Origin: a candidate division FCPU426 bacterium
Lineage (GTDB): Bacteria > Oederibacteriota > JAAXVQ01 > JAUVAV01
DNA length: 64,000 nucleotides
NCBI GenBank assembly: GCA_030637655.1
Contig: DAOWGI010000090.1
Coordinates: 1 to 64,000, forward strand
Direction of reading: 5' to 3'
Part shown: positions 1-36,571 of the stretch, in pieces
Layout: every line of letters starts with the position of its first letter
How positions within the stretch are numbered: the stretch's first letter is position 1
Translations under genes and position numbers: made by a program
Notes under the pieces: model-generated
The model's database searches: none
Seen by the model: only the letters and a program-made list of their open reading frames with translations
What the model was told of the DNA's origin: nothing

Positions 1-1
1 A

Positions 2-3000
2 CTGGCCGGGGATGGTGCGGATGAGGATGGATACGGCGTTATTGGGCGCAATGAATTGCGCCCCTACGGCGTCTTTTGCAAAGACGCTGTCTGCCGGGGC
101 GAGGATGATTTCAGGGCCGGTTGCTGTCATGCCGTCTTCATTGGCGACGAGTTCGCGGCCTTGCATGATGAGATTGCCGTCTGCGTCTTCGAATACATTG
201 AGGATTTGGACGTTTTGTAGAGACGCCCTATAGGGCGTCTCTACCTTTATACCAAAGATACTGTTCCATAAACCGGATATGCCCTTGCTCACTGAATTAA
301 TTGTATTAACTATTCCCTTTCCTATCGCTGCAAACAATCCGCCTATTGTTTCAAAAATATTGCCTGATTTTACGCTTTGTGTACTGCTGTCTGAAGGCTT
401 TTTCATCATCAAATGCTGTTTCGCTTGTGTCCCTGAAACAGCGTCTCTTCCGGCTGTTATTGGCTTTTTGGTTATATTAGCGCTTGATATTTGCAGGTGT
501 GATCTGTTTGGTTGAGATAGGTTTGGCGGCTGATTTTGCCCGCCGGTTATATTGCCCGCTCCTGGGCCGGGGTCTGAATTGAAATATGAGGGGACTTTTT
601 CTTCGTCGTCTGAGATTTTTTCCCGCTGTTCTATAGCTGCACCGGGGTTATGGACTGGTGAGCCTCGCACTACGCCGGCTTCCGGCAAGGCAAGTCCTGC
701 GCTTATTTTTTTCTGCCCCGGTTGGGGTTGCGCGCCCGCAATTTGGGCCACTGCTTTGGTGGTGCCGCCTACCAGGGCGCCGGTGGCGACTGCTATGCCT
801 GCGGCTTTGATTAAAGACTTGTCCGCAGATTTCGCAGATGACACAGATAGGTCAGCGCTTGTCTTTGAGGTCCGGGAAGCGGTCGAGGGCTTCGGTACGT
901 GTGATTTTGGTGTAGACAGCATGTTCGTAGTGGCCTTCACCTTCGATGGTTTTAAGCCAATATTGTCCACAGATTTCACACTGCTTGAGATATTCGTATG
1001 ACTTGTTAAAAGTGATTTTTTTGAGTTCACTTGTAAGTCCGTCAAAGTCTCTGTGTTCTTGTTTATTTGATTTTTTGTCACCTTCAAAACGTCCGATGAT
1101 GTCTCTTTTGAGATTACAGCAGTTGGTTTCCATAATATTTCTTTTCCTCCCTTATCTGTCAGCTTATAGACTTCAAGTATTTCACCGCCCTGGGATTGTA
1201 CATCTTTGATAGTGCCATTGTCCATTACCCATTCTCTAGCACCACCTTTGGTCAGGTTACCACCTTCCTGGTTATAATTCTTGAATCCTTTGTGATGGGT
1301 TGATTTCGGTGTTTTCAAGCTATCGCCGGGAAGCTTCATCACGATTACTACATTGGCGTCTTTTCTTAATACACCATCTGTTGTTTTTAAGGCTAATCGT
1401 TTACCCATTTCTTTTCCAGTGCGAACATCTGCAATATCATCTAATGCTGCTACAAAAACATCTTTACTTTTTGGATGTGATAGTTTTTCACCTGACTTAA
1501 CAAAATCCCATGAATCACTATCAACCACTCTCGCATACAACCCATTCTCCGGCTTCGTAATTTTAAGGATGCCAAGTTTACGTAAGCTCGACTGAACCAT
1601 GAATTTGGCTTTATCTCCAAACTTAATCGGATTGGTTTTTAGATTTGAGGCAAATTCTTTTATGCCTTTCCACTGTCCATCTAATGCTTTAAACACTTTT
1701 ACAAATGCTTTGTTCTCTGTAAACAGGGTCTTGAGTGCTGCTTTGAATTCATCGGCGTGTTTATATATTTTCGGGCCAAAGGTGAACAGGCCGATCAGGG
1801 GGACAAAGCGGACGCCGTTGAGTCCGAGATTGCCCCAATCGCCTAACTTCTTGCCTTGGTTCTGAACCAGGTTTTTGATGGCCGCACCGATGTCTCTTAT
1901 GTCACTTCCCTGATCTGCTACTGGTACAAAGTTCATGGCGATCTGGCCGATGATGGTCCAGGCATTGACGGCGCCTTCTTTGATAAAGTCGCCCAGTGAT
2001 GCGCCTTCGAGCAATCCGGCCATTTCTTCGGCTATGCCGAGTTCTTTGGCCATGGCTACGACTTCAGGGGCGATTTGTGCGATGTAGCCCCAGATGTGGT
2101 ATTTGGAGGTGAGGGCGTCGGTGACAGCAACTGTAGATTGTTGGGCAACCGCAAGGGTTGCCCCTACGGTTTTATCACCCTGATCTTTTAATCCCGCGAA
2201 GGATTTGTCCAATGCGTCTGCGGGCAAGGCATGCCTTGCCCCTACTGGTTTGCGGTTGGCGTCGAGGGCAAGGGCGGTTGTTTGGCCGTTTTTGTCGGTG
2301 CGGATGAGGATGGATACGGCGTCAACGTTTTGTTGTAGGGAACGGTCGCGACCGTTCCCTACGGTGGTGTTATTCATAACGGTTTTTGCGAATGCAGAAT
2401 CTGCCGGGGCGAGGATGATTTCAGGGCCGGTTGCTGTCATGCCGTCTTCATTGGCGACGAGTTCGCGGCCTTGCATGATGAGATTGCCGTCCGCGTCTTC
2501 GAATACATTGAGGATTTGGACGTCCCCACCATCCGGGATGGTGACAAATATCTTGGCGTCTTTGACATCCAGTTCAAAGCCCATGGTCTGGGCTTGTTTG
2601 GCAAGCGCTGCCATATTGAGGGCGTCCTGCATGTCTACAAGCTTGCTGGTGAGCATGGCCGGGTCCTGGTCATTCATGACAGGGAGTGAGGCTATGATAG
2701 TGTTTTGTTCGTCTGTGGTGAGGTCGTTGAAATTGATGACGTCAATGTTGTTTTGGGCAACCGCAAGGGTTGCCCCTACAAAGACAACGACCTGTTCTTT
2801 ACCATCTGCGGATTTGGTATACACGTATCCGATCTGACCTTTTTCATTACTTGATATTTCCCGGGTAATCGTCTCACCAATTGTTTCCTGGTACACAATG
2901 CGGTTTTGGGCAGGTTTGAAACCTGCCCCTACGAGGACGTCGAGAACTTTGCTGCCGGACATGCCGGTAAATTTCTTTATAGTAAAATCTGCTACTGACA

Positions 3001-6000
3001 TTGAACCATATTCACCATTCTTGCCTGTGAATACTTTTCCTTTAGCCAGCATGCCTTCGGCTAAGTCATCGTAGTCATAGACCAGCATCTTCATGGTGCC
3101 GTCTGCCAGTAGGGATTCGCTGACCAGAGCTTTGCCTTCTGCGTCCATATAGACCTGGCGTTTACTTTTCCCAACTTCTTCGACATACACACTTTCGGCT
3201 TTGTCGAGTTTTTCAGCCACCATATCGTTGGTGATCCGTTCTTTGGTCTTTTGCATGGCAGCTTTGAATTCCTGTGAATTGCTCTTGGCAAAGGTAAAGC
3301 TGCCGGCCGGCGTGAGCTTATTTCCCACCAGGCGGAATATCCGGCCGGTGACCACAGAAATTTTGCCGTCATCTCCATATTTGAAATCAAAGGTTCTTAC
3401 TTCCTTTTGACCGGCTGCGTTCATCATGGCTGATGCTTTCAGGGTATCTCCGTCAAAGAACAATACCATTTCTTTGCCATTTACCATGACGGCCATAGCC
3501 TCAAGATCAGCATTGCCGAGCAGGCCTTTGATGGTTTTAATCTCTTCGGCATTAAATAAAATTGATTTATTTAATTTTTCAATGCCCATGGTTTTGAGTA
3601 ATGCTTCTTTATCTGCTGCCGAGAACTCGCCATCTTCTGTCATTTCTTTGATCAGCATGAAGAATGATTGACTATCATCTGCTGATATTGTTTTGTCGGC
3701 AATAGAGGTATCTTGGGTCTTAACAGCTTTGGCATCTGTGGATTTGGTTGCAAACATTTCTGATAGTTCACAGCCTGCAACTGTCAGGCCATCGGCCATA
3801 TTATCAATTTTGATATCATTAGCCAGATCCATGACAGTCTGTTGATAGACTGCTTGCACTCGTTTGTCTTCATTCAGTTGGCGTAATTCATTATCTGCTG
3901 ACCGGGCATTAACACCTGTTTTGATGGTATAGGTTTTGGCACCTGCATTGTTCCGAACATTCAGTATAAAACCTTGTTTAAAACCTTGGGATAAGACACT
4001 CATTAAATGAGTAGCAAAGTTTTGCTTAAATAATTCCGGTGCTGTAAATGGCCCCACTTTATTTGCGTTTGCTGCTTTACTTGCTGTTGAAAATCCATTA
4101 CTAGCCACACTTATTGCTGTCTGCAAGATTACTGAAGTCAATACCTGGCCTTCAAAACCCATGACTTCATCCAGTAAAGTTGCCACCGCAGTTGCCACCA
4201 AGGCACCGACAAATAATAGGCCAATCTCAAGTAAATCAGTTGTATATTGGGGCTGACCTTTGTTTCCGGTTCCACCACTACTAAACCCGGCTGCAATGGC
4301 TAATCCGGCAATCAATAATAACTGTCCGGCGTCCTCCACACCTTCGATTGCAGCGGCACCAACATTGATCGCTGTGATCAATAGCACTTTGCCAACAAGG
4401 TCCATCCCACTGCCTCGTATCGCTCCAACAGCGCCACTGACAGCTCCGGCTGCGGCTGCTTTCCATAACTCTGCATTATTGGTCACGCCTTGTAATAAAG
4501 CTTTGGCAACTGAGACTATTGCAGTAGCTGCCATACGAGCGGCTATGGTCACTGCTTGTTGTATTGCGTCACTTGCAGCTTTTAATCCGCTGCCAATACC
4601 CATGGTTGCTATTTGAGCACCTAAATTGATCACTGCATTTCTAAAGCTCTCACCAAACTCTGTACTAAGTAATGCCCCTCGAACCAGTTCTACTACAAAG
4701 CTTAATGCTAATCCAATGGCCGGATTTATGAACGTGGCGACTATTTGGACTGCTGTTAGTATTAAACTAAAGAACTGACCCCAATCCGATAATCCGGCTC
4801 CTTCGAATTCTCCGATTTCAGTTGTTATATCCGAAGCTTTTTGTGTTGCTTGATTATTGAGATTGCCATAGGCGTCGTAGACATATTCATTGCTGCCGCG
4901 GGAGCTTTCTTCGTGGGGATTTATTTCCGATTCATTTTTATCATAGATAAGTCTATAGATACCACCGGAATCGCCTAAGTTCCATGCGTCTCGAGCACTG
5001 CTAATATATCCCAGGGTTGCTTCCTGACGCTCTCGCCATTGAATTGCTCTGATTATACTGGAATTCGACGGCGCATCGCCTACATGGAGATAATATGTTG
5101 TATTGCCGCTTGTCGTTGAAATCTTGCGCTTATTGTCATAATAGCTAATGCCCGATAGCTTCTCATTACTATCAGTTTGGTTGTGATCTGTACTTCTCGA
5201 TTTACTGGATGATTCTATTGCCCGTCCATAGCCATCAAATTTGTTCACACTATTCCTGGTTGCCGTGCCTACCAAGGCTACAACTGAGCCCACTGTTTTT
5301 GCTTCCGGATTATTTCCTGTTGTCATCCAATAAATAGTCGATTTTTTTACTTGCTCGGTATAGGTCCATGAGCTTACTTCTCGTCCATGCCGGTCATAGC
5401 CGATGTCATTCTGGATATAGGCAAATGATATAGTTCGGTCTTCTTGCTTGAATTGTCTTTCATCATCAGGGATATTCGCTTGATCTTCCCAGGCAATCCC
5501 ATCAACTGCTTGTTGATATTCACCACCCAGCAATTCCCAATTGCCATAAGTAACAAGTTTAGTTTGTGGATGAGTTGTTTTCGTACGATAAAAATAGGCA
5601 TTGTCTATCACCCAATCCCAATGGTCGCCTGTTCCACCATTAATAGTAACTTGCTGCCCGGCCAATCGATTGCTATTAGTTTTGTAACGTTTGTCAGTAG
5701 TAACAATCACATCGCCATTGGTCCAGCCGCTGTCTAACCCGGGTATTTGTCCCCCGCCATAATTACTCCAGAGACGGTTTTCTGTTTGTTGCGTCATCAA
5801 TTCATCATCATTGTAGCTCGTGGATGTGACTAGTGTTGTGATTTTGCTTTTTTCTTCATATTGATCATATAAATTACTTAAAACGTCCCTGACCGTTTCA
5901 CCCAAATCCGAGCCACTGCCTCCAAGGTAACGGTTGATCAACCCACTCAGGGTTACATTGCTAAGTTCAGTATTATTACTATCTTTTATATCCGCCCAAG

Positions 6001-9000
6001 AACTGTTAAGCACCTGGTCAAAGATATTTTTAATACTTGTTCCATCAGCCTCATGGGTGAATATCCTAAAGAGAATCTGGACTAATGAAGACTCCAGCAT
6101 GCCCGCGTCACGTTCATCGCCATAGTTTGTGTTGGGGTCATCATCAAGATTATAGGCAACTTGCAGGCTGAATATTTGTGCTAATGTAAGATCCATTAGA
6201 TTGTTGGCCGGATCCACATTATCCATATAGGTCAATCCATCAATTAATTCATCGGCTAATTGATTTACCTGAGCTTCAGTGAGACTATTGTTCGCTGATT
6301 TGAATGCTTCTTTTAATAATGATTTTAATACACTACCCAATGATTGATTCGCATAGGCAGGATCTGCCTTAACTAACTCCATGATGTTCATATCAGCTAA
6401 AGGATCGCCACCGAGGGTTGCTTCTTTTGCTGTCCAATGATCTTTGAGCAAGGCAAAGACAATGGTAGCACTGCTTAGATCACTCAATTTTATCTCTTCA
6501 TTGCCGCCTATAGGTATATTGATTTCATTGGGTGCAAAGGTGGCAACCAACGCGTTAGCGGCTTCCTTGGCCAAGCTTGCAGCAGCTTCAGGTGTTTCAT
6601 TTTTGGATAGAAAATTCGCCTGGATGCCTTCAAACAACACATCATAAATCATGCTATACACATCAGAAGTCACCAACTGATTAGTATCCAGTGTTGACAT
6701 GATTTGATCTAATGATAGATTGACCAAGGCTTGATTATTGCCATCAACTGCCAGGGTAAAATCATCGACATTAATCTGTGCTAACTTTTCTCGATTTGGA
6801 TTGTTTTGGTAATACTCCTGTTTGTACTGATCAAGCTGACTAATGGTATTGTAGGTCGTCCAGTATCGTTCTGTGTTAATGGTAGTGCCGGCCATTATGC
6901 CGCTTATATCTTCTTGATATGTTTTTTGTGAAAAGCTGAACTGTCTGCCTAATGAATCATAGCTGATGCTACTTTGTTCCATAATCATGATTCGATCAGC
7001 AGCGCCACTATCATTATAGGTTTTGGTACGTTGGTTTGTAACTTGACCTAACTCATTGTAGGCTTGATTGATAGATTCCTGTCGATAAGTACGATCTATA
7101 TTTAGCGTGGCATTGGTTTCAGTAATTCTTTTTTGCTCAGTTAACAGACGATTGCTTTGATCATAAGTATTGCTTTTTATTGATTCTTCTGTTTTGACTT
7201 CATCTCTTTCAGTTGTTTCTTTCTTTTCCTTAACAACCTGATCCAGCCAATTATAGATAATATTTTTGCGAACTATAGTATAACTGCGATTAAGATTATC
7301 ACCTGTATCCGTGAATTGCGTATTGCTGTAAACCAGATTGCCATAATTATCATAGCGCTGATCCGCTTGGCTTAGTTCTCTGGTGCCGCGATTATTCTTG
7401 GCAGTGGTTCGGTCAATACGGAGAATTTGATCGTCTGAATTATAGGTATTATTGGTGGTTACGGTATAACCAAGAGCGAGACTATTAATGCCAACTAACT
7501 TTGGACAATCGGCAGGTTGAACAGACGTGGCATTATCAAGCCTGCCGGTTTCAGCAAAAACACTTATTGTCTTTTTTATTTGATTGAGCTGATTGTATTC
7601 GACTGTTGCAGCATTTTCTACAATGGTTTTTACCGGCTTTACAACCGGCGGCCGATTGGTTGGATTGTTTTGTAAATACTCGTCTGTCGATTTGCGATAG
7701 CTGGTGACACGACTATCTTGATCAAAACTATGATTCTCAGTGGTCACTATAGTGTATAAATGTAAATCAGCACCATCATTAAAACTATCCTTTATTTCTT
7801 CCTTGGTCGTCATATTGATAATGCGGCCTAAGTCGTCATATATGATTGATTGATTAACAATCTGGATGGTGCGTTTGCCTAATGCATCTGTGGTTTTGTG
7901 ATAGGTCAGCAGTTGTTCTTGACTGTTATACACTTGATCAATAACTGTTTCAGTAGTTACCCGTAATTTGTCGGTTGTTGTTCGGGTATAATCTTCTACC
8001 TGACCAAACTCATTATACTCATCATTGACAATCGACAGGCGATAGCCATGATCCAGATTGTCTCCTGTTTCATGAATGACACTGTTTTGTTGCTTAACTA
8101 ATCCATTTTCATAAATGACATTACTAACTGTATCTGAAGTCACACGATTATTATCAGTAGTTGTCTTGGTATAACCACTCATTTGACCAAATGCATTATA
8201 GGTCGTATTGTCGGTCTCCACATCATAGCTATGCTTCAATACGCCATTACCACAGTCACCGGTTTCAGTGAAACGACTATTGGAATAAGCTAATTGCCCA
8301 TTCAAATTATACGTCATATCAGCCAGTGATTCTTCTTGAGTGGTTTTTAATCCTGAAACTGTTTCTTTCTCATAGGATTTCATCTGACCTAAATTATTAT
8401 AGTCGATTGATTTGGTATCAGTGGTATAGCTGCGATTGAGTTGAGCGCCTTCGTTACTTGTTGAAATATTCTCGAATTTAATACCTGTCAGTTCATCCGT
8501 ATCAAGAACACGATAGTTGATCAGAGAAGCTTTCATTTGTCCTTGCCCGTTGTATGCCAAGGAGGTCGCTTCTTCAATGGTGGTTTTAGCACCTGCTGTT
8601 ATGACTTTCTTATAACTTTCAACTTGGTCCAAATTGTTTAGGCTATTTTTTCTTTGGATTGATGTTATCCGACCATTGATATTACGATCTGTAATGGTTT
8701 CAATCACATTGCCTTTAGCATCCATATCTTCCACCTTGATGATATCAATGGTCACACTAAGATCATCTGTGGTGGTTTTGGTGGTAATTAAAGCGCGATC
8801 CCAGGTATCAAACAATTGGGTTTCTATAATCGTGTTATAGCTGTGATTAAGTAAGGCTGCGGTGGGATCTTTTTCAGTAATTTGGCTCTCAACGCACGTC
8901 ATCCGACCTTGATTGTCATAAACTATAATATCAGCACGCTCAATGGTGAGTTTAACTTCACCGGCTTCTTGGCGAGTACGGGTATAACCGGTTAATACAC

Positions 9001-12000
9001 CATTTTGATAACTATTATCTGTTGTAACCCTATAACTATGATTCAAATCATGAATAAGCTTTTTATCTTTTTCATTAAACGCAATTTCTGAATGACTCAA
9101 TCGTTCATCATTATCATAGTTCAGGTTAGAGGCGGTTTCAGTACTAATTTCATGATCATAGATAGTCTGCTTTTCGTAACCGCTGACCTGGCCAAATAAA
9201 TCATACTGATTGGTTAATACAACATCATACTTATTGTAATAATCAGCATTTTGGCCATCCCGGTCTTGCTCAACAACATGAAAGATTTTTTGTTTGATCT
9301 GTCCTAATGAATTGTAGCTAATGTTAGAACTGCTCTCGATGGTTTGTTTCCTGCCTTCAGTCCTGGTCAACGCATACCCGGTATTTTGACCCAACAAATT
9401 ATAGTCTGAATAATCAGCAATTTCCGTCCAACTTTTACTATAAATGCCGGCAACAGATTCAGTATAGTCAGATTCCTGATGCGTCACCTGACCGGCTGCG
9501 TCGAATGTAGCCTTGGTTACATGATGCTCAGTTACTTTATTATCTTTGGTGGTGGTTACTTGATATTGATCAGCCAACCCCTGATCATTGTAATGGCTAT
9601 TAATGGTATCAATTTTGTAGGTTGATAGATGATCTTCTGATAGGCCGTTTATTTTATACAGGTTGATGATGGCATGCTTAAATGTAATTTGATTGGCGCC
9701 ATTATAGGCAAGCGCAGACTTTTCAATCGTTTTTCTCTCATTATCAATAGTAGTGGTAATTTCATATTCAGGCTGATAATCTGCAGGATCAACAGGATTA
9801 GCTTTATAGATGTATATGGTATTACGCTCATATTTTCTGTTCAAATTACCGCCACTTTCAGTAATGATCTTATTAATAGTTGATAACAAACCATTGCTGT
9901 TAGAGTAGGTCTGTTTGATAATTTCTTTAGTTATTTTTTGACCAACAGTAGTCGTTACTGTTATATCAGCCATGCGTCCTATTCCATCATAGTGATCAAC
10001 TTGCAGCACTTTTGTGGTTAAATGTGTATCTAATCCAACTGTATCAGTAATCACCAATGTCCGATTTTTTATACGACCATGACTATCATAGGTGATATTG
10101 CTTGCTGTCTGGCTGGTGATTTTGCCGGGTGTATAGGCACTGTTGATGGTTTCAACATAGCCGATTAGTTGACCGGTATTTTGATCATAGGTCATAACAT
10201 CCCGCACAGTTGTAGTTTTGTACAAATCTTTGTTCCAGTTAATAGTTGTTGTTTTGGATAATCGTCCGGTACTGTCATCATAGCCCATATCCACTTCTTC
10301 AAAACCAAGTTGACCGGCTAAATCAGTACGATTGGTTTTGGTGTTGGATAATTTGCCATTAGTATAACCGTATTCACTATTCTCTAATGTTTTTCGACCA
10401 CCACCGGTATAGTCCATAAATCCATCCTTAGGTGAGGTTGATATAACAATTTCATTATTAATATCCAGGTAGATTTCTTTACTAGTACTTTGGAGTTGAT
10501 TCTGCGAATAATTAAACTCAGTTTTTTCAACACTAATGACCCCGGCCGGATCTTGTTTAACAGTAACAGAGTGGCTAACAATACCTCGACTGTCATAGGT
10601 TAATTTTGAATCTTCAATATTCTTAAGCCCTTTACTCTGATCATAAGTCAGCTTATTGTCAACAAGGCCAATGCCTTGTGGCTGACCGATTTTGATAGTG
10701 CGGGTAGCAACCGGCTTGCTATCCTGGCTACTAGCTCCATAGTAATAATAAGTGTCTTCCACGGTGTCTATGCCGGTAGCATCAGTATGTACTTTGATAG
10801 TCCGATTAGTTCTTGAAGCATCAGCTTCATAGAAAAATTCCATCAAGTCGGTTTCGGTTCTCGTGGCATTGGTAAGATCAGCTACCTGCGCTTCACAAAT
10901 GGATTTCAAATCAACAGTTGGCGTTAATTCATTTTGAATATTATTAGCCAATACTTTAAAATCCTTGGTGCTAATATCGTCAGCAATTCTTTTGACAGAG
11001 CCATAAGTTGATGTCGTCAGGGTTCTTCCAAACACATCCTGATTGCCGGTATGTTTATACGTTTCTACCTTGGTGTATTCCGCTATCCAGGTATTATTAT
11101 CATCCTCTGATTTGGTTAATTTGTATAATTCATTAGCACGTTTGGCATCATCATAAGTGAAAAAGGTATAGGTTTCAGTCTTAACACCATTAGCGCCTTC
11201 ATGAATTTCATGGGCGGCTATCTCTTTGCCATCTGTACGGTTGACGGTGTGCAACCTACTTGAAGATGAGTTGCGATTAACAGCCAAATTAACTTTGCCA
11301 TCAATCGGCGTGATGCCGTGTTTCAGTCTTAATTGTAATTCCAGTTTGGACATGTTCCAGGTCTGCATATCACCACGGTCAGAATATTTAATATTGCTCA
11401 TCTGAGTATAGGTCACAAAGTTATTAGGAAATAAACCGACTTGATCATTGTCGATCATATCGCTCTTGTTATCACGCGCGACTTGCCAGGCATTGAGTAC
11501 TTCTGTTTTATCAGCCACATCTTGCCATAACGTAAATGCACCATTTAAGATAAGACCATTACCGTCAAGCGTGATTTCATCAAAGGCTTTAGCTTGATTC
11601 AATGAATTAAATGAGGTATTTAATCTCACCGTGGTGTTGATTGTGTCCAGCGGTATACTGACATCAAGATCTTCGACTTTGTAGTCCTGACCCTTAGCAC
11701 TAATGGTGGTTGTTTCAGCAATGGTCCCGGTTGCAACGTCAATGACGGCGATCTTTTCACTATCAATTAATGAACCAAGATCAATCACATCACCACTGTC
11801 ACGGATAATCAAATCACCTGTCCCCAAGGTATCATTAAATGCTTTTAGCTTGTCAGCATTAGCAGTAGGTCCGGTGCCGAAATCCCGGCCTTCAAATGTA
11901 GCTTTCAAGAGTATATCCAGTTCTGTGACCACAGGACCTAACATCCTGGCCGACCCTATCCATGATTTCATTTGACCATTAGGATCATATTGAACATCAT

Positions 12001-15000
12001 TCATACTATTGACAACAACGAACATATCTAATTTATCTTTATCAGTACCGTCAATAATATTTTCTTTTTCTGTTTCAGTTAAGCTACTCCAGGCGACAGA
12101 TCTTTTTGGGTTCTTTAGTTGTAGTTTATTGCCTTCGTAGGTGATGGTCGTGAATTGTTCCATATGATCAGCGTTATCATAGCCTGAAGCAGGGACTCTG
12201 GTGATGGTGGTGGTAACTTTACCATCGGCCGGTACTGTTTCATAGCGATTGCCAGTCACCGCTGATTCTCTAAGCCTGCCTTTGAGATCATAATCAAAGT
12301 TGCTTTTTTCCTCTGTGTAATAGTCGCCATTGCTGTCAGTATAATGAGTTTTTTTGGTCACGGATGCTAATTGACCGAGCGAATCATAGACCATGTCAAA
12401 TTCCGTTGAAGTGTAGGTTTTGCTGTAGGGTGTCGCGTCTGTTGGATTACCAATAGTCTCTTCAATCACTTCAGTAACTTTTTTCTCAATATTACCCTTA
12501 TCATCATAGGTATACGCTTCAGTGTTTTTGTTTGATTCTTCTATGCGTTTATTACCGTCTATAGTGATACGTGTTTGCCTGGCAATTCTATCTTCATTAG
12601 TATAGTCATGCATGGTGGTCTCTACCGTATAGATATGTTCCGGATTGGTTCCCACTGTTTCTGTAATAGTATTAAATGAATGGATATTTCTACCGGCTGT
12701 ATCGTAGGTCATGTTGGTCAGATGCTCTAATGTCACTTTGGCGCCATTAGTGGTGGTGCGCTTCATTTCAGTCACATCACCATTCTCATTAAAACTAATA
12801 TTTTTAGTATCTACAATATAGCTGCGATAATATAATCTCCCCTCCTTGTTAGCCAATTTTCGAATACCTGACTCTAAAACAGTACTTCTGATGGTTTTGA
12901 GATCATCACCATCATAGGTCATATCAGACAAGCGCTCTTCAATGCGACGATTGGCATCAATGGTTGTGCGTTGCATGCTAATGGCCTGACCACGAGCATT
13001 ATATTTGGCATTCTGCATAATGGTTTGTTTGACTTGAGCTTTGCTCCCAAATGATGATTGAGCTTTTTCTCTGTCTTTTACAGCAATAACATCGTCAACA
13101 GTAATACCTGACGATTTATCAGTCGCAATGGTTAAGATATTGGAATAAATCGTTTGATTATCCTGATTGTATTTCATCCGGGCTAATGTTTTTTCATATA
13201 TCCGCTTATCACCTTCTCTGGTTTCGCGAACAAATCCGGTCATTTGATCAAGATGATTATAGGTCATGCTGCCGGTAATTATTTCCTGAACCTTAGTCCT
13301 GCTTTTGGTGGTCTCGGTGATCATTAAATGAGAGAAGGTTAACCGATTCTCATTATCATAGGCCAAGCCGGACTTGGTCTCTTCGATAATCGTTTTGTCT
13401 TTTTCTTTGGTTTCTTTACGATAGTGTAATTGGTTACCCTTGTCATCATAATCAGAAATTCTTGTTTCAACGGTATAGGTTTTTTCTGCTTTTTCTTTGC
13501 CCTGATAGCGGGTTTCTGTTATTGAAACTTTATTGGCTTTCATCCTGCCTTGTCCATCAAATTGATGCCACAAGGCTTTGGTAACTGAGATACTACCATC
13601 ACCGGGCAACTCAGCCTGGATTGAACCGGCAAAAAGACCGGCTTTTTCAGTATCACTTAATTGATCCCAGGTCTTGATTGCATTACCAACAATGATGTCC
13701 TTACCGGTAAATTTGATTTCTTCATAAGTATCAAGGTGACCTACATTGTTATAGGTAATATTTTGCCTTGAGGATGTCGTGACTCCCGACGCACTGATTT
13801 TGATTTGAGCATCCTTGGCCAGATCATTCAAATCATAGGTTCCGGTTTGTAAGGTGATACCGGAACCATCAACCAAAGCATCAACTTGAGTTTGATCCAA
13901 TTGATAGGTTTGATTATTAATTTGAAAGGTATATTCCAATAGCTGCGTGGCAGTAACTGACTTCAGATCAGCCATATCATTGATCATTTTTAACTGATTG
14001 TTGCTTTCTTCCTGCAAGTCTGCTGTGACTAATTCGATTTGATTAATATGATTTAACATCATATCAAAGCCGGTTTTGATATCTGATTGTTGCTCTTTGG
14101 CAATGACTAAATTTTGTGCAGCAGCATCGACTAGATCCGAAAATTCACTAATATCACCTACAGCTTCTAAGTATTCAGTTGTTTTTGCGAGATAGGCATC
14201 TTTTTGACTTTGGTTATTATTGGTTTCTTTTAATTGATTATAACTGTCAACTAATCCTTGATTGGTTAGATCGCTATGATAATTATCAGCAGCCTTTTCC
14301 CTAAATATTTCTATTTCATTAAACAAGGTAGTAGTATCCTCATAATGTTTTTCAGCATCTTTTAATTTGGTATTTGCTGTTTCATATTCGGTTTTAGCAG
14401 TCTCCCATTGGTATTTCAAGGATGATTCATAAGGTCCGGTTTTTTTCACAAATGCGTCATTGCTGTACCATTCAGTAGACGTATCCTGTGTAGCATACAA
14501 CTCGAAATGTTTGTCTTGATACTCTTTATGAGCAGTAATCATCAATGCTTCGTAATTAATATTGCTTTCAGTACCATCACCCTTTAAATTTGTTTCAGCA
14601 ATATCCATAAGTAATTTTTTATCTTTCATTTCTTTTTCAGATCCAGACAAACCAATTTCATCACCGTGTTGTATAATAAAAAGCGCCAAATTTCTTGCTT
14701 GTACCTGACCATATGCATCACTATTAATCTCAGCCGGGCGGTTATTACTTGAATAGGTTTTTACCTCCACTGAATAATCAGCTTGTAATAAATACTCAAA
14801 ATAAACTGTAGACGAAAAAAAAGAATGTGATCGTTTTATTACTGTACCGACCGGAACCATATTTAATTTTGCTTCACTTTCTTTAACTATCTCTACTTGA
14901 CCGTCATAATTATTTTTGGCTAGGGTATATGCAATTTCTGCAGATGAAAAGGGTTGATATTTTATGTTATATTCACCATATTTCCCCTCATATTCACCTT

Positions 15001-18000
15001 TTTTAATCTTCAGATCTCCAACAGCAACATTATACTCACCTTCAATACCACTATCATTGGGATCATCCGGATCACCTTTTAAGTATATTTCTTTCGCTGT
15101 AAATATAGCGCGCAGTCCACCTGCATCATTTATCGCATGATCTATACCGGATCGTATCGACGATACAATAGCGCCTAATTCATTTAATCCATCTTTCAAT
15201 TGCAGCGCCCGGTTTATTAAGGTGTCAAGATCTTTTTGGGAAGTTAGTTCAGTTTCTAATATTTGTTGATCATTTAAACCAACGTCAATATCATTCTTGT
15301 AATCTTTGTGTGTCCAATTTATTAACACTTGTTGGACAAGGCCAACTGCTTCATCCAGAGCCCTTTCGTCAATATTGATATTATATTTAATGATTAGCTC
15401 TTTTAAAGTTGTTACTTCAGTTAGTAATCCTTTGCCGTTATTTCCAAAATAGTCCTTGATTTGTTTAATTAATTGATCTTGCTTTCTGATTAAAGCACGC
15501 CAATCATTTTCACTAATGATCAAATTCTTCATAGCACCAGCTAATTCAGCCGACGCTGTTGCCAGGACTTCATAGGCATCATCGAGATTATCGCGAGCAG
15601 TATCTTTCGTGTTTTCTTTTTCAGCTACATTAAGATTTTGCGTTGTTAGACGAGCAGTGATGGCATCCATTACAGCTTGCTGATCACTGGCTGGTGGCAA
15701 TTCGTTGTTGAAGTATTTATTTATTAAATTATAGGATTCAATCCATTTATCGTTAGCCGACTTTAAAAGACCTTGCTGAGCATTAATGACTAATTGTTGC
15801 TTGTTGATCATGTCCTGTTGTTGTGACAAGGTTTGGAATATATTACCAGCCTCTGCAAAGTCCTGATACGTATACCCCCGCTTATGGGTGGTGAGATCAT
15901 AGCCGATCATTTGGTTGATGGCATTGTAGGTGACGTTGTTCCATAGATTAATTGTGGTCAGTTCTTTTACTTCTGCGGTTTCATTGATTAAGGCATCGAT
16001 CAGGGTGTTGCGGTCTGCTATGGATAGATTGGACCAGGTGACAGTAAAAGATTGAGTCCCTGGATCCCGGATCAAGTCCGGGATGACGGCAGGTGGGGCG
16101 GTGATGAAAAGATCATCGCCGTTGATGATGGCTTCGGTGTAATCTGTGGCCTGGTCAAAGGTGTTATAGATGTAATTGTACCGGTAGAGATTGGTGATTT
16201 TGCCGTCAGTGGTTTTGCCGACAGTACGTTCATTCATGCGCGCGCTATAGGTGGCTTGGCGCTGGGTATGGCCTTGGTAGGTTACTTCCACATCGGTTAG
16301 GGTTTCTTTTTCCGGTCCGGCGGTATTGCGGGTATTTTCCTGCCAGCTTTCCGGACGGTTGTAAGTATCGTACATGGTATTGACTCGGTGTGTTACTGTG
16401 CCGATATAGTCAAAGGGTTTGAGTTTGGCATAGGCGGTTAGCCAAGCAGGCATATTGCCTTCATCTGTATCATCAATACCGGCAACTGCGTTTGAAAGAT
16501 TCACTACCCCAGCATACGCGGGGCAGGCCAAGGCGCCAAGGGCACCAAGGTTTAAATAATTATTGGTAAGAGCAAAAAGATTCACCACCAGGCTACCTAG
16601 GTCACCAAGGAAAGATAAATCTAAAATACCGGCAAGACCATTAAATAATTCTGTAATATTAGCTGTCATGTCATCAGGTAAACTACCCAGCTTAAGTTTG
16701 ATCCAAGTAATGACATTGGTGATTAAATTTTGCGGTTCAATAGCCAACATGGTGGCGAGTTCGAGGGCCTCAACAATCCAGGCTTTGCCCAGGTCACTAT
16801 TTGGATCCAGAGTCCCCAGTCCCTGTGTGCTTACCAGCCAGGCTGAGAATCGGCGTAAGGTGGCATTGGTCAGATCTTCATCTGCTGTGACATGCACATA
16901 AGAGGATTGTTGTCCTAAATGATTATAGGTGATGCTGTTCATGATGGATTGGGTGGGTTTTTCAGAGGCCTGGCTGCTGAGGATGAGTTCCTGGTAGCCC
17001 GATTGCATGCCCTGGTGCTGCCAGATACGGCTGGAAACATCCGGGCGGATACATGGATCCGCCCCTACGAATTTAATCCAGGTTGTGCCGCCATCTTCTG
17101 AATATTGGGTTGTATCAATATATTCAATATTGGACCGGATCAGACTGGTGGTGGTTTCCTGGGTATCCGCTCCGCTGGAAATAATATTGGTTGTGGTCTC
17201 ATGATAACTGTCCAAAAGGCCATTGGCTTTGAACAGACTGTGTGCGCGCTTTGTTCGTGTGGTTTTGGTTCCCTGGGCGGTATTATGAACAGTCTCACTC
17301 TCAAAGCGGCGCAACTGACCGTGGTCGGTATAGCTGTCACTAAACCCGGCCTGCCAGGTAGTTGTGTAGGTCTCGATCTGTACGCCGTTTTCTTCTATTG
17401 TGCCTTCTTCAGTAGAATCAACAAGCTGCCCCTTGGTGTTATATGACTTGGCTCTTGCTGTCCAATCGAGAGTAATTATCTGATTTTTATCAATGGCATT
17501 GGTTACTTGATGATAATACTCGCGCTGGCCAAGAATGTTATAGGTCTGGTTGGTTACTGTTTTGGTATAGGTGCTGTCAGCTAAATTCCAGCCGACTTCG
17601 CTATAATCAGTTTGTTGTGACAAGTAATTATAGATAGTATCATGCTGGATTTTTTCGTAATAGCCGGATTCGGTCCAGCCGGTTTCTGTAGATGCAAAGA
17701 CGCGGCCTAAAAGATCAAAGGCATTCACCACAGAGAGCACAGAGGACACGGAGGAAGGATTGGTTTGGGTTAAAATCGTTTTATCAATTCCTGCCTGCCA
17801 TTGGCGATCTATGTATTTGCTGCCGCTGATGCCTGATTCTTCATAACCGGTTAGCCAGCCGTGGTCGTCGTAAGTCATATTGGTTCTGGTTAAATCGGTA
17901 TTAACACCGCCTGCTTCGGAATAACCGTTTTCGATGGTATGGGTGGCCCGGCCTTGGTCATCAAAGGCTGTTGCCTGCCAGGTTTTATCATAATTGCCGG

Positions 18001-21000
18001 TCAATGCGCTGCTGCCGGTTTCTTCAAAATAATTCAGGCGGCCAAAAGTGTCATAATCCATGTTAGAGCGGGCGGCGGTTTCACGGGCGAACACCAGGTT
18101 CGCCCCTACGTCGATTTTATCAATTGATTCTTCATAGCCGGTTAATTGATTATCATTATTATAAGTTGCATCGAACCAGTTTTTTTCTTCTTTCTTCTGA
18201 TCTATTTCCTGTCCTGTCTGCGGATCATAATAAGTGGTTAGCGTGCTCTCCAAATAATGCTTCTGATTGCCGGATAAATCATAACTGTCGGAAAAATCCG
18301 CCTGCCAGTCGGTAATGGTTTCTTCGATTAGCAGGGGCACGGCACGCCGTGCCCCTACATGGTGATATCCTGTTAATTGGCCCAGATTATTGTACTTACC
18401 TTGTGACCATTCCTTTTCTGTAACAATACCTAAATCACTGGTCACTACTTCTTTATAATGTTGCATTTGGCCCAAGGTATTATAGGAATCAGCAAAGTCC
18501 GCTTGATAGGTTTTGCTATAAGACGGCATGGTTGTCGTTGACCCGGTCTCACTGTAGCCTGTTTGTTGGCCTTTATTATTATATACAATGCCGGTCTGCT
18601 GTTTGGTATAGTCCTGACTGCCATTGTCAGTGGTTATATAGGTTTCATCCAGAGCAATTACCTGATCTAAAGTATTGTACTCTCCGCTCCACTTGGTGGC
18701 ATAGGCACCGGTAGCAGGTGAGGTTCCGGTTTGAGTATAACCAGTAGTCCTTCCGAAATTATCATACGCCGTTATATTCCAATCCTGAACAATGGTTCCG
18801 CTCTGATTTTCCTGATGGTAGTTATCCAGCTCGCCTTGAGTATTGTAGGTCATTAGAGATCGAATATTGATTTGAGTTTGATCCAGCTTAACTCCGCTTT
18901 GACTGTCTGTTCCAATACGATTAATGGTTTCTTCATAACCAACGATTTGTGCCAGAGTATTGTAATTTATCTGGTTTTTGGTGATCGTTGTTTCTAAGTC
19001 AGGCGAGGCATTGGAAGAGTTGGATTCTGTATAAGCAATCTCGCGACCGGCATCATCATAGGTTGTGCTTTGACGGTTAATACTCTGTATAAGTGATAAT
19101 GTGCCATCCTGTGTATTCTTACTGATTGTTTTGGTATAAGTCAGGCGCTCTCCGCGATGGTTATAAGTAATATCTCCCAAAGTGTCGGTTACAATAACCT
19201 CCGGCTCCTGTGATCCGGCCTGTTCTTCTTGTTGACCTATGAGCTGACCTGACTGATTATAACTTGTGCTCAAACGCTGAATGGTTGTGGTAATAGCCGG
19301 AGCATTAATACCTGCCAAACTATCGCCCTGTTTGATAATGGTTTGATCAAAAGTGTTTAATTGGCCCAGATGATTATACTTGGCATTGCTGTAATCAGTT
19401 ATGGTAGTTGTATTAATATCACTATTTGTGCTTTCTTCCTGCCAGGAAATTTCCTGATTGAATTCATTGTAGGTGATCTTATCGCGGGTGGTAGTTTCTC
19501 GGGCGAACACAAGGTTCGCCCCTACATTTATTTTGTTGATTAATTCTTCATAAAAAATTAATTGACCATAGGTGTTATAGGTTTGTGAGTTTCTTGTGCG
19601 TTCATTAATAACACCTGTAGCTGCAGAACTTGTGGTCTGCTCTTTAAAGCTTATTTCCTGATTATGGGTATTATAAATAATGTTCTGTTTGCCAATAGTA
19701 TAAACCCGCCTCATCGGACCGGTTGCTGATGTTGTGGTACTTTGATTGGTATAACCTGATACCCGTCCTGCCAAATCAAAACCCGCCACAGCATAAGCTA
19801 TTGTTTCTGTCAGATCGGAAGTTAGGGAGCTTTCTTTGGTTTCTGTATAATGAATTAATCTTCCCTGATTATCATACTTCGTGCCCTGGCGCGTAATAGC
19901 AGTTGTCCGGTCCAGCAGGGGCGACCGGCCGGTCGCCCCTACATCCTGTTCATGTTGGGTTTCACTATAGGTTTTTATTCTGCCAAACGCATCATAGCTC
20001 ATTGACGCGCGATTAACCGTTGTAATAACATCATGCCAATCTTCGGTGGTTGTTTCAGTAAAGTCCGTGACCCGGCCTAATACATTGTAGATCGTGGCAA
20101 GTCTTCGGGTTTCTTTCTGAATACTATAAGGCTGATTAACATTTTGGCCCAGAATGGTCTGGTTTTCCAGCCAGGTTTCAAGCTCACCCATATTATTGTA
20201 GGTCTGATCATGCCGGATAACAGTGATTAACAAATCCGCCTGATCACTGCTGCTTAAGTTGTCTTCATATCCTGTTACCCGGCCTTGATTGTCGTAGGTA
20301 ATGGCAGTGCGGTTGGTGGTGGTTTGTAAATCCACAAGAGGGCGGATACTTGGATCCGCCCCTACAACAACCTGGTGATGTTTTTCCTGATACCCGGTTT
20401 GTTGATTCAAGGTGTTATAAAATATTTGATCACGAGTGGTAGTGGTGATTTCATTACCTTTTAGCCTGGTTTCTTCGTATTCTGTCAATCGGCCTTGGTT
20501 GTTATAAATACCTTTCCAGCTACGGGTTGTGCCATCGGTTGTCGCATTAGACGTGATTTCTTCTGTATAACTTTTGATCATCCCGGCCGGATGATAAAGG
20601 ATGGCGCTTCGTACAATGGTCTGAGTGCTATCCAGCGTCTCGGTTCCGGTATTCCCGGTTTGATGCGTGGTTTCTGTAAAGGCGATTTCCCGACCTTGCG
20701 CATTATAGGTCGTACTTTGACGGTCTGTTCTTGTCAAAATCCCCTGAGGAGCTACAGAGCCTTTGGCTCCTTCAAACTTTAAATTCATCCATGCCAGTCG
20801 TCTGCCATGAATGTCATACGCAATGGATTGCAGGGTTTCAACAATGACTTTGTCCGGGGCATCGCTGGAAATGGTTTCTTCAGTACTTAGACTTAATTGG
20901 CCTAATGGATTGTATTCCGTGGCAGTGCGTTTTTTGGTTGTGCTTTTTTGCAATCCCGGCCCTCTGATGCGTGTTTCCTCTTCAAAGGTTTCCAGTTGCC

Positions 21001-24000
21001 CGAATTGATTATACCGGCCTTTGGCCCATAAAACCGTGGTTTGTGTATCCAGCCCCTGGGTTGTTATGGTATCTATGCTGTGGGTTTTCTGACCTAATCC
21101 ATTATAACGCTGATGATTAATAGAACGATTTTGGATGGTTTCATAAACCAGATCGGTTTGTTCATAGGCCCTGGTTGTAATGGTTTCTTCCCGGCTTTTT
21201 TCCTGTGCAAGTCGATTGGTTTTGATATCTGTCACATTGGTCAGTACAATCAGGCCTTGGCCGTCATCCTGTTTTTCAGCATAACCAATCATATGACCCT
21301 GATCATCATACAGCATGTTATAGCGCTCGATAGTTTTGATCACCCCGGTTAAGTCCGATCGTCTGATCTGCTCTTCATAACCAGCTAATTGTCCGCTAGC
21401 ATTGTAGATCATACCCCAACGGCTGGTGATGATCTCAATATACAAATCCACTCCATTGCCGGCCTGCTGAACAAGGCGTTCTTTATAACCTGTCATCTGT
21501 CCTAACGCGTCATAATTAAGCTTTGTCATCCACCGTTCTACAGTCATAAGCGGTGTCATACTGGACCACTGCGTTTCATGGTAACCGGTGATTTGATGTT
21601 TTTTGTTATAGGTAATCTGATCGCGCACATTGGTGTCGATTTTATCTAATCCATCACCTTGGGTGTGAATGGTTTCTGTATAACCGGCTAAGCGCCCGGT
21701 TTGGTCAAAATCTGCCTGAAAACGGGTTCTGGTAATGGTGAGGTCCATGCAGGTCTCAACCATGACAACTGCGCCGGGAGCAAAACTCAAGGTAACATCT
21801 GATCCGCCCGGGGATGTTATCTGAACGGATTTGCCTTCCAGAAGTTCTTGCTGCTGCGTTTGGGTTACTTGATCCCACTGTAGGGGCACAATATTTTGTG
21901 CCCCTACAAATAATGTCATGCCTTCCAGCATAGCCTCGTTCAACTGCCCATAATCAGGCAGTCTATCTTCGGTTGTGCCGACAATACGCTCTACTTCATT
22001 CTGCTGCGCCAATCTTCCCAGACTGTCATAAGTTCTGTTGGTTATATTTCTGGTTGTAATTAAATCAGGAGACTGGGTATCTGTAATGGTTTCAGCATAG
22101 CTCAGAAGCTGACCAACCATATTGTAGGTCATCGCATTGCGATTGGTTGTTGTAATACGTGATTGTAGGGGCGTATTGCCATACGCCCCTACGGTTGTTT
22201 CAATGGTTTCTGCTGCTACCAATCCCGCTGGGGTAAATCCATCTGCTTGCCATGTCACGGTTGTTTTAGTGGGATTCCCCAGGGTTTCTTTTTCTTCGAC
22301 ATACGAGACCATACGGCCGGCGATATCATATTGGATCGGTTGCCGCACACTGCTCTGGGTCAAGTAAAGTACGATCTGCAAAACACCGGTTGTCTGATCT
22401 AATTTGAGTGAACCCAATTCTCCGATGGTCACTATTTCTTCGTTTAGTAGGGGCACAATGCATTGTGCCCCTACTAAATCCGTCCAGTTGATGCCATTGC
22501 CTATACCGGCAATCTGCTTTTCCAGTTCCTGGAGTTTCTCTTCTTCTGTCATGGCGTCCCAATTAGCAGGAAGCGTCTTCACGCCTTCTCCGGTTCTTTG
22601 CGTAATCGAGGTAACAGCAATCTGTTGACCAAGTCCATTGTAAAGCAGGCCACTGATAAAACGCTCACTAACCAGGCCGGTAATATCCGTGACCAACTCC
22701 TGATACCCCATGATTTCATGGCGGCTGTTATACACTGTTCCGCTGCGTTGAATCATGCTGACACCGGCCGGTGTTGCTTCGTCCCATATCTCATCCGTAT
22801 AACCTGTGATCTGACCAAGCGCGTTTCTTATAATATCTGTTCTGGTTGTAATTACGGTATGATCCAACCCGGGCGCTTGTGTGCAACGGGTTTCAATTCT
22901 TGAAAATAGCGTGATATCGGTTACAGTTAAAGTAACCTGCCAGTCCAGTATAGTGCCGTTGGGATCAAGTCCTGTGGTTTCTGTGATTTGGGTGTAGGCC
23001 TGTAATTGTAGGGGCACGGTGCACCGTGCCCCTACCCCCGTATTATTAAATTGAACATTGTCAAACCAGGTACGTGTGGTTAAATTAACGAGTTTATTAT
23101 CATGAGTTGTTCCTGATATTGTCTTAATTTCTTCTCCGCCGCATATTTCTCCATAACCATCATAGTCGCGATCGACAACTTCAGTTACAACTTCGACATT
23201 GGGATCTTTCTGACTAATACTGCTTTTGCGCGATCGCGTAACACGCCCGTATCGGTCATATTGTCCCGCTTGCCAAATCGTGTTTGTACGGTCGGGTTTC
23301 AAACCCGACCCTACGTCTGAAATCGGATTGGTAATCGTTTCTTCATAACCAATCATCTGATGCAGATTGTTATAGGCGGTACATTCCTGAATTCTTTCGG
23401 TCACATTACCGTTCGAGTCTTCAAAGCGCTCTTGAACACTTTCCAGCCTGCCTAATGCGTCATAAACTGCTCCAAACCAGTCATGGCTGGATGTCAGGCC
23501 CCCGGGGTATGTCCAAATTTCTTTATATTTAATCAATCTTCCCAATTTATCATATTCCGCATTCTGCCAGGTTTTCCGGCTTTCGCTGCCATCTGCGCTT
23601 ATATATGTTTCCTGATGGCTTTGAATGCGGCCATATTTGTCATACGTACCATTGCTCCAGACGCGATAGGATACCTGCCCGTAAATATCCGTTACTTCTT
23701 CAATATAATCCGTAAGCTGGCCGTATTGGTTGTAGCCGTTTTGTAGAGACAAGACATGCCTTGTCTCTACGGTGTTATCAAACACATTGGTAGCATCCCC
23801 GTCAAATTGCCCGGCACGCCATTTTGTTTGTGTGCGATGACCGAATACATCTTCACGAATTTCCGTATAGCCTGCCTGATGATCAAATTCATCATAGCGG
23901 GCTTCCTGCCACCAGCGCTGTGATGTGTTGCCCAAAATATCAGTGGCAGACTCATGATAGCTGATAAGCCGGCCCAAATAATCGTATGTTCCCTGATCCC

Positions 24001-25585: not shown

Positions 25586-25630
25586 AGAATCCTCCATTTT
25601 TTTGGGGATGGCTTTATAATATCAAAATCA

Positions 25631-29653: not shown

Positions 29654-29806
29654 AAAATAACCCTTCTTAAAACATCAAAAGATTCACCACTAAGTCACTA
29701 AGGCACTAAGGTTCACTAAGAAAACAAAATATAAAAACATTTTTACCTTTGTGTTCCTTTGTGGGCCTTTGTGTCTCCGTGCCTCTGTGGTGCATCTTTT
29801 AAATCT

Positions 29807-30214
29807 TTACAATATTACTCTTCTGATTCCATTTTTTATTAACTCAACATTAAAATTAATCAGCAATCCTAATCTTTTTCCAGATAGTTTTAAATATGTT
29901 AATAATTGTGCCCTATGAATAGGCAAAATATGTTCAACAGACTTAATTTCAACAACAAGTATTTTTTCAATTAACAAATCCATTCTATAACCGGCTTCAT
30001 CCAAACATTTACCATTATAATAAACCGGAAAGGATACCTGCCTTTCAGTATTCAATCCTTTGACTAATATTTCTTCCATCAAAGCAAGTTCATACACCTT
30101 TTCCAATAATCCACTGCCAAGTTGTAGATGCACTTTAAATGCCGCATCAACAACCGCTTTGGATAACATATTTAACTCAACAGAAATTTCTTTTTGTTTT
30201 GCTTTTTCAATCAT
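29807..30214 (-). CDS. GxxExxY protein (PD-(D/E)XK-like)
   Basis: LGSGLLEKVYE, YRMDLLIE, VVEIKS, QLLTYLKLSGKRLGLLINF. Confidence 0.93.
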   Translation of the reverse strand: MIEKAKQKEISVELNMLSKAVVDAAFKVHLQLGSGLLEKVYELALMEEILVKGLNTERQVSFPVYYNGKCLDEAGYRMDLLIEKILVVEIKSVEHILPIHRAQLLTYLKLSGKRLGLLINFNVELIKNGIRRVIL

Positions 30215-30283
30215 ATTTTTTCTTTGTTTCCTTTGCCTTTCTTTGTGAACCTTTGTGTCCTTTGTGCCTTTGTGGTGGATCTT

Positions 30284-33451: not shown

Positions 33452-33769
33452 CGAACTTCTCCGATCAAAATTTTCTGGGGGTTAAACCGCAAAGTCAAAA
33501 ACAAATTCAAAATATTCACCACAAAGGCACTAAGGACACGAAGATTCACAAAGAAAACCAAAATCTTTTTAGGGTGAAATCCTGAACTCGAAATCTAAAA
33601 ACCAAAACCATTTAAATAAGATTTTTAAAATTCATACAGCTTTTATATTTAACCCCTCAAAACTTTTGATTTTTCATTATTTTGCCTTTGCCTTCTTTGT
33701 GTTCCTTGGTGTCCTTAGTACCTCTCGTGCCCGTAGTTCGGGTATTGTGGTGCATCTTTTAAGTCTTTT

Positions 33770-34843: not shown

Positions 34844-34908
34844 ACTATCTCCCTATATTTCATTATTTTAAATAATCCACCACCAAGGCACTAAGCTTCA
34901 CCAAGTTT

Positions 34909-36378: not shown

Positions 36379-36571
36379 AAGATTCCTTTTATTCAAATTG
36401 GTATTGTCAAAAATATCTACCACTATACCCAAACTACGGGCACGAGAGGCTCTAAGGCGCCAAGGTTCACAAAGTTTTTTAATGTTTTCATCTTTCCTTT
36501 GTGTTCCTTTGTGCCTCCGTGCCTCTGTGGTGCATCTTTTCATTCCTTTTCTTTTTTTAATGATTCACCAC

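Follow-up and report, generated by a model that had tools for sequence, protein, structure and literature searches.

In polymorphic toxin systems of bacteria, a toxin followed, after a stop codon, by a separate immunity gene is the pervasive order, and because of this order recombination exchanges the one active tip (PMC3482391, section 41). The primary partner of the toxin family Ntox10 is the small immunity family Imm27 (Zhang et al. 2012, PMC3482391). Here we describe a locus of a candidate division FCPU426 bacterium (assembly GCA_030637655.1) in which a putative toxin related to Ntox10 lies inside a giant open reading frame (ORF) and its predicted immunity gene is nested in a shifted frame of the same DNA. 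The window, that is the whole stretch of 64,000 nucleotides (nt) analysed, is G000:C8:1-64000, and its position 1 is the end of contig C8 in a genome (G000) of 3.28 Mb and 120 contigs. The giant ORF occupies positions 2..25597 of the reverse strand (-), as do all window features given below, and its 8,532 codons are free of stops and open at the contig end. The locus resembles the Ntox10/Imm27 systems of the RHS and contact-dependent inhibition (CDI) type in its constant long body with a variable tip, its toxin-then-immunity order, its strings of immunity genes and its Ntox10-family domain; in those systems, however, the toxin is terminal, the immunity gene is a separate ORF and the tip is replaced, whereas here the toxin is internal, the putative immunity gene is nested in the +2 frame and the cassettes share one frame (PMC3482391). 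Compared with polymorphic toxins in general, the toxin domain, the linked gene directly after it and the constant body with a variable tip were all found, and a C-terminal toxin with a stop before a separate immunity ORF was not. We consider it probable that the gene encodes a polymorphic-toxin-like giant that ends in a chain of toxin modules, every one with its own immunity gene overprinted in another frame. The main novelty would be the nested gene as cognate immunity gene, more than the repeat to which an earlier note on this DNA had drawn attention.

The nested gene (852..1133, -, +2 frame) encodes a 93-residue protein with a CC...CxxC..W pattern. Its GGAGG ribosome-binding site (1146..1150, -) is located 12 nt ahead of the ATG, and both this site and the start lie inside the last codons of the toxin domain (1112..1588, -). 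Past the toxin, the giant ORF continues for 370 codons or more and across the nested gene, where its frame stays open as a linker rich in Ser, Thr, Lys and Pro. Compared with the second cassette of another contig of the genome, C82, the nested frame is identical at 60/94 positions (64%) and the giant frame at 40/92 (43%). The differences fall by nested codon position as 26/21/43, the third position being the most variable, and as 36/28/49 against a locus from another phylum (L021). These substitution patterns indicate that the nested frame, rather than the giant frame, is the conserved one and that the nested gene is under selection in its own frame. In the giant frame, the toxin domain itself is under purifying selection, its differences being distributed over the codon positions as 45/30/78. 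When the codons of the nested gene were redrawn synonymously with its protein kept fixed, the probability of an open giant frame was 0-0.0006, 0.015-0.026 and 0.002-0.005 for three copies, with about 3-6 stops expected per +2 gene; in ordinary genes of the genome, that frame was open in 54 of 5,704 windows. The openness of the giant frame therefore exceeds what chance would give.

Three lines of evidence bear on the function of the nested protein, the first being that the primary partner of Ntox10 is a small immunity family, Imm27 (PMC3482391), although the nested family does not match Pfam Imm27. A free-standing homolog of the nested gene (E 1e-5) was found directly behind a terminal Ntox10 toxin in locus L024. 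In addition, a modelled complex of the toxin with the nested protein scored 0.80 against 0.00 for the best control; the runs agreed in at least 86% of contacts, the partner reached a predicted local distance difference test (pLDDT) of at least 85 and the interface includes the conserved toxin positions 65, 67, 101 and 113. The score mark was reached by 116 of 157 solved pairs and by 2 of 215 mismatched pairs, counts that are only rough with the alignments used here. The nested gene is thus predicted to be the cognate immunity gene of the adjoining toxin. Its search profile returned none of 44 candidates when built from three sequences, and 8 of 387 when built from six, two of the eight being its own inputs. 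A label of Imm27 (PF15590) was tried and dropped, as it found no match in the genome itself (E<=10) nor in any scanned homolog; an Atlas lead to Imm27 (0.89) existed for a C82 copy and none for the window copy.

The relation of the toxin to Ntox10 (PF15520) is clearest in the first cassette of C82, which scored 33 bits, over the gathering cut-off of 26.8, and to which the window copy aligns at 39%; the cut-off was also passed in L021, L022, L033 and L037. A profile of three toxin copies collected 181 representatives at E<=0.001. A late conserved motif was located in 126 of the 150 representatives listed, and 117 of these 126 scored relatives end no more than 45 residues past it, like ordinary C-terminal toxins, while the other nine run on for at least 100 residues, one of them being the C82 protein itself. 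A first structural model from three sequences (pLDDT 59.5) was too poor to use; the model from 88 sequences reached 89.7 and resembles the fold of ADP-ribosyltransferases (ARTs) and NADases. Its fold search gave nine chains at Z>=5, the best matches being SPN NADase (Z 6.5, root-mean-square deviation (rmsd) 3.5, 126 aligned residues) and Tne2 (Z 6.3, rmsd 3.6, 99 aligned). The 50 listed rows of fold matches we take to be ART-fold NAD+ enzymes or similar domains, except for 2aua and 6aqk, which were left unplaced. In the R-S-E type of the ART superfamily, an Arg lies on the first strand and a Glu on a late strand. In the toxin model both R20 (Arg codon 1529-1531) and E119 (Glu codon 1232-1234) lie on strands; E119 is at least 90% conserved in the 88 sequences, R20 is outside the list of such positions, and the two are candidate counterparts of the catalytic residues. 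Since the best structural matches are NAD+-using toxins, the activity is likely to be that of an ADP-ribosyltransferase or NADase.

NADases and the DarT and RES toxins of toxin-antitoxin systems are also among the fold matches, and they would also suit a chain that is real but does not carry inter-bacterial toxins. The domain would then be an NAD+-depleting or ADP-ribosylating module, serving anti-phage suicide or acting on host or prey from within, and the nested protein its regulator. The giant carries no known secretion marker in Pfam or NCBIfam, as such a module would allow, and in the internal toxins of L031, L032, L034 and L036 the conserved Glu is replaced by Gln with the nested genes kept (two scanned toxins of this Gln-bearing subgroup gave no Ntox10 match). 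We consider this quite unlikely, however, as the 117 relatives are C-terminal domains, like Ntox10 in RHS toxins (PMC3482391), as the giant starts with a signal-like segment and carries a stalk of repeats, and as an ortholog in the genome G005 has an HExxH-type domain at its end and a small lipoprotein-like gene behind it, a tip that looks like a toxin-immunity pair.

Further cassettes were found in the same genome. Contig C82 starts inside a 1,678-codon ORF that carries two cassettes of toxin and nested gene in one frame, with toxins 39% and 65% identical to that of the window and nested genes at 538-801 and 2188-2472, each with a GGAGG. The cassette tails have in common a 282-nt repeat at 88%, with the copies 557 codons apart. 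Behind them comes a third module of a hydrophobic part and a coiled coil, in that order; it holds another nested ORF, which lies in the +1 frame. Judged by eye from the genome's long or open ORFs, C8 holds the sole giant of the family without an end and C82 the sole matching end without a start, and C82 therefore probably continues the giant gene of C8. The earlier note had proposed that such cassettes are concatenated in one polypeptide, which the two on C82 and many in other genomes bear out. It had also expected a different toxin to follow; the C82 toxins are instead divergent paralogs, yet the third module is of another kind.

Within the order, the region of the repeat (hereafter the arm) is present in 2 of 14 other genomes, G005 and G008. 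In the G005 ortholog (10 contigs), the 3' part of the arm, a piece of 123 nt, is duplicated in frame, 897 codons apart, and the third module type occurs twice in frame, its copies being 27% identical, starting at the duplicated arm piece and each holding a +1 nested ORF. G008 has the arm and the pre-toxin segment followed by a contig break, in an ORF that starts after a stop and is without the long stalk. The proteins of G005, G008 and a complete paralog on contig C20 align with the giant up to the arm and then differ from one another, a constant body with a variable tip. ORFs or fragments of G005 and G008 (L016:12841-13137, L017:2621-4581) that start at one internal point of the giant, about 450 residues before the arm, resemble orphan cassettes whose homology arm is long.

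The +1 nested ORFs form a second family unrelated to the +2 family, found once on C82 (L001:4356-4739) and twice in G005 (L016:4306-4713, 7093-7482). The encoded protein is a coiled coil whose repeats, of 7 or 11 residues, are open in both frames, and again the nested frame is more conserved than the host frame. Stop-making codons are avoided where a host stop would arise (0/99 vs 21/120, p 2e-6, a value inflated by the internal repeats), and 8-14 host-frame stops would be expected per gene. This gene may possibly confer immunity to a membrane-acting toxin. The family found no match among 8,000 candidates, was present in 2 of 99 genomes, both of them sources of the query, and left no shadow in the host-frame protein in any of 12 proteins.

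The +2 arrangement also occurs in other phyla. On two contigs of an Elusimicrobia genome we found an internal toxin with a nested gene in +2 (E 4e-16 and 5e-11), and the immunity alignment, searched against 401 Elusimicrobiota genomes, matched 15 times, in 5 of them. Thirteen of these matches lie in the +2 frame of a long open host frame, directly after a toxin or another nested copy (G099 3, G485 4, G381 3, G361 1, G102 2). In L032, L035 and L037, two or three immunity domains are nested one after another, and the host frame has no stop across any of them. A first locus scan with an alignment weighted to the pre-toxin segment gave 0 of 62 candidates, and later scans gave 3 of 29, one being a weak unrelated match (L023), and 1 of 62. 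At the protein level, 7 of 10 proteins of the internal type, one of the 7 being named Omnitrophota, show a shadow of the nested CxxC..W in the host frame no more than 100 residues behind the toxin, against a background of 2 matches in 15,621 other residues, with a motif composed after these sequences had been viewed. Of the three proteins without it there, P0027 is encoded by DNA that does contain the nested gene, and in P0031 the motif occurs only ahead of the toxin. In the third, P0005 (residues ~261-341), the immunity sequence stands in the toxin's own frame and is followed by the linker frame of its relative P0007, which on the protein sequence is either a fusion of toxin and immunity protein that arose naturally through two frameshifts offsetting each other or the outcome of assembly errors. 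The locus L021 (1110-10600) holds a short version of 1,082 codons with toxin, nested gene and a C-terminal GHSQG hydrolase-like domain, and a lipoprotein-like gene downstream; its neighbours, recombinase-like and primase-like ORFs by our own labels, suggest a mobile carrier.

This short version beside recombinase-like and primase-like ORFs, and the stalkless G008 ORF, would also be in line with toxin-immunity pairs that are real but are expressed separately as internal modules with promoters and starts of their own, in the manner of toxin-antitoxin pairs, with the full-length polyprotein not being the delivered form. Internal expression of rhs-CT/immunity pairs is described for Salmonella (PMC7043789). 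Such separate expression is nevertheless unlikely, since it gives no reason for the open host frame, in which stops are expected in every +2 and +1 gene at the numbers given above, nor for the avoidance of stop-making codons in the +1 family. A promoter-like site that it might employ (1224-1195, -; sigma-70-like, 10/12) is, by eye, not kept in the second C82 cassette; the region has 7 such sites against 3.3 +/- 1.9 in shuffles, and the site was not used as evidence.

The chain of modules is marked by the repeat at its boundary. Arm copy A (2297..2523, -) and arm copy B (14..213, -) share a core, 90-213 versus 2400-2523, that is identical at 123/124 nt with an offset of 2310 nt, and a second block, 14-39 versus 2297-2322, identical at 26/26 nt with an offset of 2283 nt. 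Both offsets are divisible by 3, and within the stop-free ORF the copies are in frame and 770 codons apart; this agrees with the earlier note, which had placed the repeat in the same frame about 2.3 kb apart and the toxin, nested ORF and linker between its copies. Its description of the copies as almost identical applies to 150 of 200 nt and fails in the middle part, where they differ (50 vs 77 nt), each with its own GTAG-type palindrome, that of copy A at 2335-2362. The protein of copy A is conserved in the C20 paralog, G005 and G008; the arm DNA, its palindromes aside, is absent beyond its two copies from the 3.28-Mb genome. Downstream of copy A lies the pre-toxin segment (1601..2119, -), common to the second C82 cassette (~77-86% of nt over 1638-2038) and G008. 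The earlier note had likened it to PT-TG, a label that was dropped, as Pfam PT-TG (PF14449) found no match at the locus (E<=10) and none in homologous segments. Behind the nested gene, the linker of the giant protein (214..851, -) has a first part common to the C82 cassette tails and a GTAG palindrome at 217-244. The in-frame duplication in G005 and the divergence of paralogs and orthologs directly after the arm support its role as a module boundary, and recombination may take place at the arm. Overall, the interpretation offered by the earlier note is largely right and is supported in part.

As the contig closes with copy B in its final 213 nt, and the giant ORF runs off it 13 nt past the arm, the duplication might be an assembly artefact or strain chimera, with C82 belonging to another gene and the locus holding one cassette. 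The contigs of four public cold-seep runs of one study were checked, of which X1 is possibly the source sample and for which contig depth does not equal copy number. The 124-nt core forms a separate contig that is covered roughly twice as deeply as the contigs next to it (X1 26.2 vs 12.7-16.8; X3 10.7 vs 5.3-6.7), which fits a real two-copy repeat. No variant letter was listed across positions 1-2118. One run contig, with roughly doubled depth, reaches 1,618 nt past position 1, and this would account for the break in the assembly; neither the genome nor the other loci analysed matched any of four short peptide motifs taken from read ends, which places the next 1.6 kb past position 1 outside the bin. 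In favour of an artefact, no piece among the listed run contigs bridges the junction of linker and second arm, and an X2 contig joins 141 to 2466 via 14 other letters, with exactly one 2,310-nt unit missing. That joint may stem from a strain lacking the cassette, from a third copy of the arm or from collapse during assembly, and was not counted as proof of recombination. We hold an artefact to be very improbable, given the double depth in X1 and X3, the different palindromes of the two copies, the same arm duplicated in frame in G005, two cassettes and a third module within the single contig C82, and the match of the one endless giant with the one startless end; the result for the nested gene is, moreover, independent of the linker-arm junction.

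Several observations weigh against the proposed chain of toxins with overprinted immunity genes. The window toxin reached 16.3 bits against Ntox10 (E 0.0095) and stayed below the gathering cut-off, no fold match was found at Z>=8, and Foldseek gave nothing at E<=0.001. RHS/YD, secretion and protease domains were not detected on the giant with Pfam or NCBIfam. For the +2 family, the within-gene codon control did not reach significance (0/43 vs 1/25; 0/16 vs 1/31), the openness is less surprising in GC-rich copies (P 0.057, 0.47), and the nested copies share ancestry and so are not independent trials. Searches detected the toxin in none of 98 further genomes of its own phylum and the nested gene in none of 60 relatives, and the remaining 2 of the 15 Elusimicrobiota matches are one two-domain immunity ORF (L041) with no intact toxin ahead. 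The link between C8 and C82 is without bridging sequence, and the six runs that a DNA-directed search listed for the stretch include no RNA run.

The delivery part of the giant was examined for its architecture. A hydrophobic N-terminal segment is followed by about 6,700 residues with 59 YD-like motifs, from which a signal-like start and a YD-like repeat stalk are predicted, and further hydrophobic segments lie near residues 6,945-7,140, ahead of the cassette region. A test for trafficking or stalk domains (RHS/YD, FilH, LXG, PAAR) gave no Pfam or NCBIfam match; on the giant ORF as a whole, Pfam had nothing under E 0.06, and NCBIfam did not match chunks of the window. GTAG-type motifs match the giant ORF 19 times (window 67-23770, -), all 19 in the same codon phase and mostly as palindromes, and translate to short Val-Gly-Ala-type inserts; a simple pattern counted 229 of these palindromes genome-wide. 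They resemble repetitive extragenic palindromic (REP)-like insertions tolerated within coding sequence. Immediately upstream of the giant and on the same strand (26168-36543, -) lie genes for an outer-membrane efflux protein, a membrane-fusion protein and two of the AcrB family, with a PD-(D/E)XK gene between the latter two; no evidence ties these efflux genes to the giant's export. The C20 paralog (G000:C20:22807-51213, L002/L003) is complete with 9,469 codons and 35% identical to the giant over about 8,000 residues. Its different tip seemingly includes several small enzyme-like domains without a Pfam match, and no comparable nested gene was seen in its tail, the divergence beginning after the arm. 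The genome contains dozens more ORFs of more than 1,500 codons, mostly of another giant family with a common N-terminal domain.

Parts of this arrangement have been described elsewhere. The orphan rhs-CT/immunity modules of Salmonella Typhimurium likewise are extra downstream cassettes that share homology and have internal translation signals, but they are separate ORFs without a delivery part, whereas the window cassettes are fused to it (PMC7043789). Several toxin domains in one very long protein are also known from SACTE_5178 (13,652 residues) and the 'polytoxin' of Xanthomonas fuscans, for which the available part of the source mentions no nested immunity genes (PMC3482391); the available text of that survey does not contain the term 'reading frame'. 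Same-strand nested genes such as comS in srfA of B. subtilis and gndA in gnd of E. coli resemble the present gene in being small, in a shifted frame of a larger gene and functionally tied to it (PMC11230408). They are single short genes, in contrast to a gene of 85-100 codons with a free-standing ancestor that is repeated per module and is the predicted binder of a domain of its host protein. Effector cassettes of MARTX toxins place several toxin domains in one giant, and these effectors act on eukaryotes; we know of no immunity genes in MARTX. The NAD+-using toxins with immunity proteins SPN-IFS (3pnt), Tne2-Tni2 (6b12), TreX, Rhs1-CT, RhsP2 and TreTu are middling fold matches (Z 4.3-6.5) at 9-15% identity to the window toxin, and the substrate is not inferable from the fold. 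To our knowledge, their partner genes are not nested. The giant proteins of Omnitrophota resemble the present one in their giant ORFs, RHS-like beta repeats and occurrence in uncultured bacteria; in the available text of that preprint, 'nested' and 'ADP-ribosyl' do not occur and 'immunity' occurs once, in a reference (bioRxiv 10.1101/2023.11.21.568195). The available main text of neither of two giant-protein preprints uses 'nested'. A literature search of titles, abstract openings and few subscription papers yielded no description of nested, overlapping or overprinted immunity genes, and in the searched literature Ntox10 is named in PMC3482391 only.

We propose that an ancestral toxin-immunity cassette would have lost the stop codon of its toxin, that stops would have been purged across the immunity gene and that its shifted frame would have become a low-complexity linker. 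The immunity protein would be made by internal initiation on the same mRNA and would bind and block the toxin domain, which would consume NAD+ as a transferase or glycohydrolase. The giant may be exported, its YD-like stalk presenting or delivering several warheads that some processing would free. New toxin-immunity cassettes could be added without silencing those downstream, with the repeated arms and linkers as putative sites of cassette gain and loss. Delivery and processing are the weakest steps, as no secretion or protease domain was detected.

We see about even chances that the locus stands for a general class of 'read-through' polymorphic toxins in giant-protein bacteria. Its members would carry several warheads per polypeptide, each immunity gene, or string of two to three, being overprinted on the linker behind its toxin; they would comprise two or more nested families without relation to each other, a zinc-ribbon-like one in +2 and a coiled-coil one in +1, their arsenals would grow by addition instead of replacement, and the poorly conserved linkers of many giants would be unannotated immunity genes. 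An overprinted immunity gene would remove the single-tip limit, and one giant could then hold many toxins together with their antidotes. The finding hints at what giant genes of uncultured bacteria may do and offers a search rule for missed toxins and immunity genes, namely the shifted frame of linkers rich in Ser, Thr, Lys and Pro. With a defined partner, the activity of Ntox10 becomes testable. Furthermore, the locus is a well-supported and rare bacterial example of long dual-coding DNA, whose ancestry is visible because the same gene pair is found unnested elsewhere.

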